A stretch of 64,000 bases of DNA, from the NCBI GenBank assembly GCA_046563655.1, contig CM102287.1, positions 4,464,001-4,528,000 on the forward strand. Direction: 5' to 3'. Positions within the stretch are counted from its first letter, which is position 1, and every line of letters starts with the position of its first letter. The position numbers were made by a program, and so were the translations under genes. The notes below the pieces were generated by a model. That model searched no databases, was not told where the DNA came from, and worked only from the letters and a program-made list of their open reading frames with translations. Source of the stretch: Yuukianura sp. NJ FZ-2021. Taxonomy: Eukaryota. Positions 53,699-60,875 of the stretch are shown here, one piece after another.

Positions 53699-56600
53699 TC
53701 AGCACAGGGAGTGACATTGGGCAGGGTGCAGGAATCCCTGAGCAATGCACTTTCTTAAGCACGCTGGACTGCGCTTCACCGCCTGCTGAATGTCGCTGGA
53801 ATCTGTTTGAAAAATTTGAAACTTTGAATTTTGAAAACGAAAATTTTGAATTTTGAAAGTATTTTTCGAAATTCCAACCTTGTTGACTCGTCCGTGGATC
53901 TCCGCTGTTCTGTGCATATCTGTTCTGGAATAATGTCCAAATACCGTTACCGGATCCAGTGCGTCGTAGTGTCTCCGAGCGATCGGTGTCGTAAGTGTCC
54001 TTGTCGCCTGTCGTCCAATCACCGCTGAGGAGTTGAGCAGCGCTGACGCTGATTGGACGCTGATCCAGATAGTTGGCAAGTGCTGCCGCCGTTTCCTTGA
54101 TCTTCTGACGCTGATCCAGCGAAGTTGTGGAGCGCTGGAGGACGGGCAGCTTCGTAAAAGTGGGAGGAGCCAACATTCTGGATTTGGACTCTTCTGATTG
54201 GTCCAGCATGTCCGGTCGCGCGAGCTCCAGTGATTGGTCAGCAGTGCTCAAATCATCAGACAAATCGCTTCCTTGGGCCAAGTACCTTCTGTCCAGCACA
54301 CTTGCACTCTGACACTCTATTCAAAACCAAAAAAAAAGTTAAAATTTCAAAATTTTCTGAACTTTTCAAAAATTGGACACCCAGAAAAACGCCGTACTCA
54401 ATTCTTTCGAAAATTTTAGTTGGAAATGGAAAAAAAAGTCGAAAATTAGTTGGGAATCCTGCCTTTTTTCGAATAAAGGAACTATTCGAAAAGAAATTCA
54501 CCACCGCACTCCTTCCTCCCGAAACGTTTTTTTTTGAAAATCGAAATTTTGAATGAAATTTTTGAAATGGCGGAAGGAAGTTGTCATTTCGCAGGAGGAG
54601 TAATTAGCAGTGTGGGTTTTTGTGGTGGATTTGCGGAAGAAGGTGTGGCTGGAGTAGGAGAAAGTTAAAAAGTTCTCACGAGGGATGCTTTTTCGCGTAA
54701 TCTCGAAATTTGGAATTTGAAAATTACAGTCATATTCAACATGTGAATAGAAGATTTTCTGCAGTAGTTTCGGTTGCGAATGCCAAAAAAAAAATATACC
54801 CCGACCTGGACTCGAACGCGTGTCCCCGTTCCAAAATAATGAGAAAGAATATTTTTATAGGAATATTTTTATATACTTTTTGAGGCCTGAAAAAAAATCT
54901 GTATTTTGTTGCTGAGACTATCTATATTTTCCCCAAGGTTGCTATAGCAGCTTTCTTTGCATCAGGTTGTTCAGTAACTCCCTATTTTCGAAAAGCTAAA
55001 ACTATTTTATCCAATTTGCCCACCAATTTTGTTTATCTTTTTTCCACCATTTTGTTTTACAATTATTTCTGGCTGCGACTAAAACGAAAAGATTAATTTA
55101 AATTGTTAAATTGTTATGGAGAACAATTTCGAAGTGAGTCGTTTTCAGTTTTGAAAATTTTCGCTGTGAACGTAGAAACTGGAGTTAACAAATAACCTGA
55201 TATAGCAAAACAATTTGCTTGTTTACTAACCTTGATTTTCCCGAAAAACCGATGCAACGCATGCATAATACGTTGTTATGAAAAAAACGGTTTTTTATTT
55301 TCTCCAGCGGTTTTTTAAAAATAACAACAGACGACTATAGTCGTCAAGCGGCCCCTGAGGTCGAAAAAAATAAACGACTTTAGTTGTATTTAGCCCTCAA
55401 AATGTTAATTCATCATAACAAAAAGCCGACAGTATGTCGCATAATATTTGAAATACGTTTTGTGTTGAAGAATTCGATATGAAAAATATTTTTTTTCATT
55501 ATTTTGGAGCTGGGACACGGGTTCGAGTCCAGGTCGGGGTATATTTTTTTTTGGCATTCGCAACCGAAACTACTGCAGAAAATCTTCTATTCACATGTAG
55601 AATATGACAGTAATTTTCAAATTCCAAATTTCGAGATTACGCGAACAAGCATCCCTCGTCAGTTCTTTCTCTTTTTTGAAAATATGTCCTCATAGTCATT
55701 ACTATTGTTTTGAAATTAGTCTCTCATAAAGTTTACATTAGGTTGTAAAGTTAGGTTGGTTAGGCTAAGGTTAGGTTAAGGTTAGGCTAGAGGTCACGTG
55801 AACTAAGGAGAGGCTGGTTTCATGTTTCGGCGGCTACTATTGTACTTTCTCTTTTGAAATAAAACAGGAAGTTTTCCATTAAGCCCAATTTATACTTTTC
55901 GTTTCCCTGGCGTTTCCCGGGCAAAAGTTTGTCGTAGAACACGATTTTAACGAAAACTTCATGACGTTTGTATTTAAAATTCGGTTGTTATAGACGTCTA
56001 CGACAAACTTTTGCCCGGGAAACGTCAGGGAAACGAAAAGTATAAATTGGGCTTTAGAATTAGAAAATCGATTCCTTCAATCTAACAAACTCAATCTTCT
56101 TCTTTCTTCTGTTTTTCACTAGTACTTTTCTGTTCAAATAAACACAAGAGTTCAGAAAATAAGAGACATGAGATGTATAAAAAAAAATGTTTCGCTTTCT
56201 AAATATTTATCTATACATCAAAACTTTTTTTTCAAAATAACTTTCTAAGTTTCAAAAAAGCGGAAGCTATACTTTTAAAAACTCGAATTTTGCTCGATGC
56301 CCGCTCGCTCATGCTTTTAAATTTTGGAAAAGACGGAGGCTAATAAAACTTGTTTTCTAAAATAGTTTTTTAATCAAAATCATGTTCTAAATTTGTTCTA
56401 ATTTCCTACACATGTTTAGGTTTGAGCAACCCAAGGCATAAAATCCAATCTAATTTGGACTTGTAACGTAGGGTGAAACAGATTTGCGGAAATTACTTTA
56501 TGACCACACACTGCTGGATCCTGGTTGTCCGGATCCACAACATGTTGTGCATGACATGGCTAATGACTGGGACAGTTGCCTAGGGAAACAGGTCAACTGA

Positions 56601-59600: not shown

Positions 59601-60875
59601 TTAATCTCTAGATTTCCTAAAAATAAAAAATACGCGGCGTCTAAGTTTCGGCAAAGAGAAAACAAGGAGAAAGTTAGATTTTGAACTTTTGTTCTATTTT
59701 AGTCTATTTTGAAATCTAATTATTTACTTCGAAATTGTCAACTAATTTTTTATATTCGACATGACTTCAATTTGTTTCGTAGTTTCGTACTTTCTCTTTG
59801 TTCAATTTCAATTTTGACAATTTCAGCTTCAGATTTCCGGTGCGATTAAACACGTTCTACATTCACTTTGTCTTTTCTTTGACTCACTTTCACTTTAGTC
59901 GTTCCACGCGCTTCCTAATCAGCCTCATCTTCCGTCCCACGTTCAAAATTTAAAAAAAAAGACACAGTGCTCAAAAAGGGAAAGTTTTTCATCTTTTTTG
60001 TACACAAGGACGGACGTTTTTGTGCAAAAAGAAAAACTCGCACGCAACTACTGTCCTCTTTCATCATCATCCACCCACCTAACTTAATTGAGTCTACTCT
60101 AAAGTAGACCTATTAGGTTAGGCCAAACCTAACCTTAGCCTATTCAAACACTTCCATTGCATGTGCGTCTGTCTCTCCCCAGTAGATGCTCAGCAAGTAT
60201 TTTATGTAAATTGGTCCATCTCTTTTCCTCTCCCGCAACATAATATAAGGGTGGATCTCTTTCTAGTAATAACGGAATTACGAGACTTAATGAAGATGGA
60301 TAGAAAAGTTGATTAACACCTATTTCAAGCCGCTCTTTCCAAAATTGCGCCCAAAAAATGACGATTTCAATTTCTCTTTTTGAACTTTGGAAAAAGAATG
60401 TCAGTTTCAAAATTTTGAAGTTCAAAATGAAAAAAAAAATTCAATCCATGAGATAATCCCTCCGCATCGTCTGCACAAACGAAGTCGGATTTGAAATTTT
60501 AACGGATCCGCCGTAATTTTTAAGGTTGTTGGATTTTTTGCAGTTTAGAATTGCAAATTGGCACAAATTAAAGCTTTCTGTATGGAAATTTCTAACAAAA
60601 AAAAAATGAAAACGAAATTCATTTTGAAAAAGCAAATTTTAAAAAACGAAATTAAACGCCGCGCATTTCTGAAAGTTACCTGATTTAACAAAAAAGTAGT
60701 AAAGCGACTCTGTCGTTTTTCAGAGTGGTGTTCAATTTGACAAAAACTAAAATTTGCTTTTTTTTTTTTAATGTTTTTGAAAAACTTTTCCTTTTACGAA
60801 AATTGAAATCTTACCTGAAGAACAACAGAAGATGAGTAGGAGCGACACAGAGAGGAAACGCCAAACACTTTCCAT
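53699..60875 (-). CDS. Secreted 200-aa prepropeptide (candidate neuropeptide/peptide-hormone precursor) with a C-terminal 4-Cys peptide
   Basis: Exons 60875-60815 (MESVWRFLSVSLLLIFCCSS, CAG|GTAAGA), 54316-53879 and 53802-53699. Both introns are phase 1 and the total of 603 nt is in frame. Hydrophobic signal peptide, dibasic sites RR, RR and KR, and C-terminal SPACLRKCIAQGFLHPAQCHSLC. A 5'UTR acceptor precedes 60944 and an upstream donor AG|GTGAGA follows 61455. Confidence 0.8.
54677..55660. mobile_element. Non-autonomous DNA transposon with about 180-bp TIRs; superfamily unresolved
   Basis: 54678-54856 is a near-perfect reverse complement of about 55481-55659 (ACGAGGGATGCTT...). Flanked by the direct repeat AGTTCT (54671-54676, 55661-55666). 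No ORF. Confidence 0.85.
55738..55790 (+). repeat. Degenerate interstitial TTAGG repeat
   Basis: Five exact TTAGG plus TAAGG/TTGG variants within 53 bp. Confidence 0.5.
55882..56053. mobile_element. Tourist-like MITE (PIF/Harbinger superfamily)
   Basis: 57-bp TIRs (55882-55938 and 55997-56053, one mismatch) starting AGCCCAATTTATAC. 3-bp TTA duplication on both flanks (55879-55881, 56054-56056). Confidence 0.85.
56653..56807. mobile_element. Possible old Tc1/mariner-type MITE
   Basis: TA|CAGGGTGGTCCAA ... TTGGACCTTACTG|TA: a 13-bp TIR with 3 mismatches and TA on both flanks. Confidence 0.45.

Follow-up and report, generated by a model that had tools for sequence, protein, structure and literature searches.

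The 64,000-nucleotide stretch of the Yuukianura sp. NJ FZ-2021 genome analysed here (GenBank assembly GCA_046563655.1, contig CM102287.1, positions 4,464,001 to 4,528,000; hereafter the window) carries on its minus strand a real three-exon gene for a putative prepropeptide of 200 residues. Exons 2 and 3 are confirmed by comparison with an orthologous locus on a metagenome contig, while exon 1 is predicted. The precursor starts with a hydrophobic, signal-like N-terminus, continues with a variable pro-region and a Lys-Arg (KR) pair, and ends in a 23-residue peptide with four cysteines, followed by the stop codon. The parts of the gene are listed below, numbered from the first letter of the window.

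60815 to 60875, minus strand: coding part of exon 1 (predicted), with the ATG at 60875-60873; 20 codons plus 1 nt, covering most of the signal peptide.
54317 to 60814, minus strand: intron 1, 6498 nt, phase 1, GT..AG, GC content 0.34; its acceptor, GAATAG, stands directly before 54316.
53879 to 54316, minus strand: exon 2, 438 nt; it completes the signal peptide (to about 54306) and then encodes the variable pro-region, including RR at residues 30-31 and 138-139.
53803 to 53878, minus strand: intron 2, 76 nt, phase 1, GT..AG, GC content 0.22.
53699 to 53802, minus strand: coding part of exon 3, 33 codons plus the stop TGA at 53701-53699.
53771 to 53776, minus strand: Lys176-Arg177, predicted prohormone-convertase site; all 136 motif-bearing proteins of the family have a dibasic pair at the same distance.
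53702 to 53770, minus strand: predicted mature 23-mer, C-X3-C-X10-C-X3-C, at the protein C-terminus, conserved in homologues.
53529 to 53534, minus strand: candidate polyadenylation signal AATAAA, about 165 nt past the stop; weak.

The computed join of the three exons (60875-60815, 54316-53879 and 53802-53699; 61, 438 and 104 nt) across GT..AG introns, both in phase 1, gives 603 nt, that is, 200 codons and a stop. No single open reading frame (ORF) of the window produces this protein, as an earlier sequence-only reading had claimed when it proposed three phase-compatible exons; the joined model was reproduced, with frames and stops checked. Exon 1 has the start context AAAATGG at 60875 and the donor CAG/GTAAGA after 60815. 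It ranks first among 16 phase-1 candidates in 54317-64000 that run from ATG to GT with a hydrophobic core, its donor scoring 6/7 against 4/7 for the runner-up. The core of this exon, predicted from sequence signals, reaches a Kyte-Doolittle (KD) value of 3.0. An alternative first exon at 58944-58866 was rejected for its weaker donor (4/7). Exon 2 is preceded immediately on its 5' side by an in-frame stop (the ORF begins at 54320), and no signal-like sequence lies downstream of its first internal Met. The second intron is bounded by the donor AAG/GTTGGA after 53879 and the acceptor CAAACAG before 53802. Because the frame of exon 2 differs from that of the Cys peptide, this 76-nt intron must be spliced out. 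In GC content, exons 2 and 3 (0.54 and 0.56) stand well above introns 1 and 2 (0.34 and 0.22). Codon usage also separates the frames: with 648 codons of the neighbouring HSC70 gene as the training set, the log-likelihood score of exon 2 is -9.1 bits in the modelled frame, against -80.4 and -45.7 in the other two. The polyadenylation signal is weak because AATAAA hexamers occur 80 times in the window, both strands counted. Intron 1 also holds an inverted repeat (54669-54856 and 55482-55668) with arms of 125 and 71 nt, 95% and 93% complementary and 625-750 nt apart, which may be a foldback or an insertion resembling a miniature inverted-repeat transposable element (MITE).

In the precursor, the predicted signal segment formed by exon 1 and the start of exon 2 has small residues at -3 and -1. 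Cleavage is predicted near residue 24, which would leave a pro-region without unpaired Cys. The pro-region of 151 residues is rich in Ser, Thr and Gln (33 Ser/Thr) and mildly acidic (D+E 22 versus K+R 17). The sequence-only reading had described an acidic pro-region with RR sites; the sites at 30-31 and 138-139 stand, and the acidity holds in part, being only mild. Its description of a C-terminal Cys 23-mer after KR, lacking an amidation Gly, agrees with the model: KR occupies residues 176-177, and TGA follows Cys200 directly with no Gly before it. The 23-mer carries a net charge of about +2.

Relatives were found through the peptide end of the protein. Exon 2 by itself had no homologue in a word search of 5.8 billion proteins (proteins of 79-254 aa) and none in metagenome contigs. 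A 40-aa query from exon 3 retrieved four proteins, with the peptide at the very C-terminus of each. Using phmmer, the 33-mer of exon 3 matched 82 proteins at E<=1e-3 among 1.84 billion representatives, with a lowest E of 1.4e-8 and 3.7e-8 for the best true member. A profile built from an alignment of 30 C-terminal stretches (A1) matched 226 proteins at E<=1e-3 among 7958 candidates, with E down to 1e-14. The motif C-X3-C..HPxQCH..C is present in 136 of the 139 proteins collected; the other three (P0009, P0041 and P0068) look like repetitive false matches. A local phmmer comparison of the window pro-region with the 139 family proteins gave no match at E<=10.

The position of the peptide within its precursor is as constant as its sequence. 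All 136 motif bearers have a dibasic pair at -5/-4 from Cys1, KR in 133 and KK in three. The protein ends at the last Cys in 120 of the 136 and after 1-5 further residues in 11, and the remaining five run on with Trp and a long tail. For these five we suppose that the gene caller took a TGA stop for a Trp codon. Endings of two to five residues beyond the last Cys, such as RFSG, RAGF and RF, occur in P0042, P0061, P0110, P0120, P0127, P0133, P0135, P0138 and P0143, and members that finish in Gly could be amidated.

Among the 136 members there are 83 distinct 23-mers. Eight positions (Cys4, Cys8, His15, Pro16, Gln18, Cys19, His20 and Cys23) are fixed in all 83, an invariance that is partly built in, since the selection pattern itself contains these residues. 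The same eight are invariant in the 30-row alignment A1, which was made without that pattern, and all eight are present in the window 23-mer. Position 2 is Pro in 69 of the 83; a near-invariant Pro at this position is typical of released peptides. In 400 random pairs drawn from 55 complete-looking precursors and aligned globally, mean identity was 0.66 for the 23-mer versus 0.25 for the region before KR, the latter about the level of globally aligned unrelated sequences. The remainder before KR varies from about 60 to about 390 residues across the family and cannot be aligned between classes. Conservation confined to KR and the Cys peptide had been named beforehand as a check on the sequence-only reading, and this is the pattern found (0.66 versus 0.25, with the dibasic pair in 136/136). 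A hydrophobic N-terminus is seen in the window protein and in 56 of the 136 members; many of the others are partial gene calls.

The closest relative came from a metagenome scan with A1, which returned 15 loci. Fourteen of these contain the motif, with the stop coming directly after the last Cys in ten and after one additional Lys in four. At this locus (L001), 22 of 23 peptide residues are identical to the window 23-mer. A tblastn search, using the window protein as query, located its homologue of exon 2 at 32% identity over 153 aa (E 6e-9), and the two exon-2 translations share 49 of 151 residues by BLASTP (E 7e-10). Exon 2 of L001 begins at the same acceptor position, where an AG immediately precedes it and an in-frame stop lies close by on the 5' side, and both exons open with the same run of residues, save that a Cys in the window is Ser in L001. 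The second intron of L001 (80 nt, GT..AG, phase 1) interrupts the same split Asp codon, eight residues before KR. No signal-peptide exon was found within 1.75 kb upstream of exon 2 in L001, so a long first intron is likely there as well. Of the 30 codons compared in the peptide region, 14 match exactly, another 14 show synonymous changes only and two are non-synonymous, with 21 of 90 nt differing. This predominance of synonymous change amounts to purifying selection on the protein. Three islands are conserved in the pro-region between L001 (1764-2252) and the window (53880-54314): the first 12 residues to the RR site, a KETAA.LAN.LD block and a G.WTL..RY.Q block. These could be further processed peptides.

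Two overlapping open frames, 53676-54320 and 53699-54247 (both minus strand), span nearly all of exon 2, and the frame of exon 3 stays open for 182 codons upstream, where it is apparently non-coding. Two variants of the model were rejected. Retention of intron 2 would end the exon-2 frame in a non-conserved tail. An unspliced exon-3 frame running through exon 2 conflicts with codon usage, lacks a signal peptide upstream and is at odds with the same intron being present in L001. The overlapping frames also give some room to the idea that no gene exists and that open frames have lined up as three exons by chance. That idea is hardly credible, as it is already contradicted by profile homology with E to 1e-14, by the splice positions in L001, by the synonymous-dominated divergence and by codon usage.

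Chelicerate-type precursors have a second conserved block after the signal peptide, approximately LFxxLFPxVPxxxHxxWK. In a pattern search it was found in 13 of 143 stored proteins (P0022, P0026, P0027, P0029, P0031, P0035, P0088, P0090-P0092, P0099, P0101 and P0105), and it is not present in the window protein. The block may correspond to a second peptide, or else to a segment with a sorting or chaperone role. It bears on whether the precursor is cleaved at all: the Cys/His motif might instead remain attached as the functional C-terminal part of a larger secreted protein, such as a module for docking or for metal binding. Metal could be bound by the two invariant His together with the four Cys, and the three pro-region islands common to the window and L001, like the chelicerate block, are conserved sequence outside the peptide. 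We nevertheless regard an uncleaved precursor as distinctly improbable. The dibasic pair keeps its distance from Cys1 in every one of the 136 proteins, the rest of the precursor is of widely differing length and unalignable across classes, and Pro at position 2 is retained in most distinct 23-mers.

Names and other statements drawn from the A1 search refer to the best 120 of the 226 matches. Organism names are given for 20 of these, from 16 species, and all 20 proteins are annotated as uncharacterized, hypothetical or unnamed. The named members are grouped as follows.

Chelicerates: Tachypleus tridentatus (five proteins); the spiders Parasteatoda (P. tepidariorum, XP_015924563.1), Larinioides and Trichonephila; the mites Halotydeus, Oppia and Blomia.
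Millipede: Chamberlinius.
Branchiopods and ostracod: Daphnia carinata, D. magna (XP_032784888.1) and D. sinensis; Artemia; the ostracod Darwinula.
Springtails: Folsomia and two Orchesella species.

Judged by these sequences, the family spans at least Xiphosura, spiders, acariform mites, a millipede, branchiopods, an ostracod and Collembola; no pterygote insect was among the organism-named matches. Two types of peptide can be distinguished, 'SP..HPAQ' in the window, branchiopods and springtails and 'GP..HPVQ' in chelicerates, and the window 23-mer is identical to Daphnia proteins at 20 of 23 positions. Its type points to a pancrustacean source for the window, but not to Daphnia, whose pro-region does not match. 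The exon 2 and exon 3 pieces have no Pfam match at E<=1, and among 18 proteins scanned at E<=0.1, 15 of them family members, the members returned only sub-threshold noise. Pfam models of neuropeptides (CHH/ITP, eclosion hormone, insulin-like and others) matched neither the window exons 2 and 3 nor the scanned members. Literature searches by peptide strings, gene identifiers and concepts, which did not extend to figures, supplements and subscription journals, found nothing on the family, and the accessible parts of the arthropod neuropeptide lists in PMC4888303, PMC4770511 and PMC6585902 contain no peptide of this kind. A description elsewhere is possible. The sequence-only reading had matched the peptide to no named family, and the Pfam result, the annotations and the literature all point the same way.

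A structure was predicted by AlphaFold2 (AF2) from the A1 alignment. The model has a helix at residues 19-28 (P-A-C...Q), a loop and a short helix at 33-36. Foldseek against the PDB with this model gave a single row (E 9.5), and VIA-align against 48,161 chains gave none with Z>=2; the model is probably too short for either program. Run against all PDB chains at E<=10, the family profile matched six sequences, none of them a hairpinin or kappa-toxin.

The reading we favour, with a probability of roughly 60%, is that the 23-mer belongs to an unnamed family of secreted signalling peptides, released by a convertase and stapled by disulfides. The signal peptide would route the precursor into the secretory pathway, where the four Cys would pair Cys1-Cys4 and Cys2-Cys3 to staple a helix-loop-helix, a pairing suggested by the two CX3C segments, by the AF2 model and by solved peptides that share the motif. 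A furin/PC-type convertase would then cleave after Lys176-Arg177, to judge from the invariant dibasic pair, and the 23-mer would be released non-amidated, since the stop codon follows the last Cys. Outside the cell it may act as a ligand, either a neuropeptide or a peptide hormone, a role suggested by a near-invariant peptide beside a drifting pro-region on both sides of the chelicerate-pancrustacean split. That the gene encodes a secreted, processed and conserved peptide is well supported; from there we infer a neuropeptide identity. The argument for signalling rests on the very strong conservation of a short released peptide, the drifting spacer and the near-invariant Pro at position 2. The secreted signalling peptide proposed by the sequence-only reading is supported as far as sequence data reach, through the KR site, the conservation of the 23-mer and a layout that recurs in relatives as distant as chelicerates, branchiopods and springtails. 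In protein language model embeddings, the look-alikes of one relative (P0007) are mostly small neuropeptide precursors (urotensin-2, NPFF, 26RFa, DH31-type, NMU and gastrin) with scores of only 0.82-0.85, a likeness to be taken as a lead only.

Several observations weigh against this reading. Most members have a second dibasic pair, R-[KR], between Cys1 and Cys2, which is missing in a variant minority; if cut, it would yield a two-chain product. The AF2 model is of moderate confidence, with a predicted local distance difference test (pLDDT) score of 68 on average and 86 over residues 21-30. Exon 1 and both splice junctions rest on sequence signals. Finally, the functionally studied peptides with the same motif, in the parts of PMC7191063 available to us, are defence molecules, protease inhibitors and K+ channel toxins, with no hormones among them.

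This last point raises the possibility that the 23-mer, once secreted, serves in defence or as an effector, whether as an antimicrobial, a protease inhibitor or an ion-channel blocker, instead of being an endogenous signal. Its Cys motif equals that of the alpha-hairpinins, whose characterised examples, in those same parts of PMC7191063, are defensive or toxic. The at least five paralogues of the horseshoe crab among the matches listed also count in favour of this possibility, but they may simply stem from whole-genome duplications in Tachypleus. Defence peptides and toxins usually evolve fast, whereas the 23-mer is near-invariant between chelicerates and pancrustaceans, with eight fixed positions that hold in A1 as well. 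A net charge of only about +2 and the lack of any hairpinin or kappa-toxin chain in the PDB profile search at E<=10 likewise make a defensive role unlikely, in our judgement.

If the 23-mer is a signal, it may belong to an ancient pan-arthropod hormone or neuropeptide system without a name, with a 23-residue, two-disulfide helical-hairpin ligand built around an invariant HPxQCH core and perhaps overlooked because it is missing or unrecognisable in pterygote models. We put this wider proposal forward tentatively, at somewhat short of even odds. Between horseshoe crabs, Daphnia and springtails the peptide has hardly changed, which would imply a conserved receptor and a conserved, unstudied physiology. 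New conserved arthropod peptide families are rare; according to the accessible part of a review-type analysis, very few have arisen since the decapod-insect split (PMC4888303). The family is of interest for arthropod neuroendocrinology, and annotation pipelines already predict its proteins yet assign them no name. Its bearers include spiders, mites (pest and allergen species too), Daphnia and Artemia, in all of which knock-down, peptidomics and receptor screens are feasible. Should the family really be absent from insects, this alone could explain the oversight, and the receptor could be a selective target in mites. In such a hormone system the CX3C hairpin, otherwise known as a scaffold of toxins and plant defence peptides, would for the first time be seen to serve endogenous signalling.

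Elsewhere in the window, a cytosolic HSC70-type gene of about six exons with short introns occupies 50939-53276 (plus strand). Its product starts MSKAPAIG and ends IEEVD, and it converges on the peptide gene, the stop codons of the two lying about 420 nt apart. An ORF antisense to it, 51214-51720, matches Pfam NAD-GH, which we take to be the known HSP70 antisense artefact. A 581-codon open frame at 35295-37040 (plus strand) has an acidic, repeat-like first half, a structured-looking second half and no Pfam match. A tRNA-Thr (TGT) at 8530-8602 (plus strand) is the sole Rfam/ARAGORN match in the window.

Among the closest known systems, the alpha-hairpinin class (EcAMP1, VhTI and BWI-2c of plants; the scorpion kappa-hefutoxins and OmTx; Conus flf14a-c and vil14a) has the cysteine pattern C1-X3-C2-Xn-C3-X3-C4 in common with the window 23-mer. 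According to the accessible parts of PMC7191063, characterised C1X3C2XnC3X3C4 peptides are plant antimicrobials or trypsin inhibitors and scorpion or cone-snail K+ channel blockers of 22-27 residues, and alpha-hairpinins, scorpion kappa-hefutoxins and some conotoxins have two antiparallel helices joined by Cys1-Cys4 and Cys2-Cys3 bonds. The size of the class (22-37 residues) resembles that of the window peptide, and the helix-loop-helix predicted for the family with moderate confidence would agree with it. What sets the window family apart from these defence and venom molecules is the invariant HPxQCH motif, the place of the peptide at the very end of a precursor with a KR site, and conservation across arthropod classes. 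We take a CX3C helical hairpin as the likely fold of the 23-mer, but, as the PDB profile search at E<=10 detected no sequence relation, do not assign it to the alpha-hairpinins.

Small Tim proteins (Tim8/9/10/13), which carry twin CX3C motifs on two helices, as the window family is predicted to, are the sole PDB family matched by the profile (Tim13, 3cjh_A, E 0.012; Tim10, E about 1). The matches are single C-x3-C segments, none significant alone, and the window family has no match to the Pfam Tim model (zf-Tim10_DDP). Small Tims lack both a signal peptide and a KR site and reside in the mitochondrial intermembrane space, unlike the window protein and 56 of its 136 relatives, in which a signal-like N-terminus is present and KR precedes the motif. 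Tachyplesin, polyphemusin and gomesin of horseshoe crabs and spiders also have four Cys as CX3C...CX3C and two disulfides. These beta-hairpin antimicrobial peptides are set apart from the window peptide by a 4-residue loop, a highly cationic character, amidation and a mature peptide placed right after the signal peptide.

In the organisation of the precursor, the closest parallels are the arthropod cystine neuropeptides trissin, elevenin, CCHamide, CCAP, allatostatin C, CNMamide and the agatoxin-like peptide, which share the layout of signal peptide, spacer, dibasic site and single Cys peptide, as well as a patchy presence among arthropods. They differ from the window 23-mer in Cys spacing and sequence, and, unlike them, it is non-amidated and has no precursor sequence after the peptide. 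We regard the family as apparently unnamed, but belonging to a known kind, the secreted cystine-peptide precursors.

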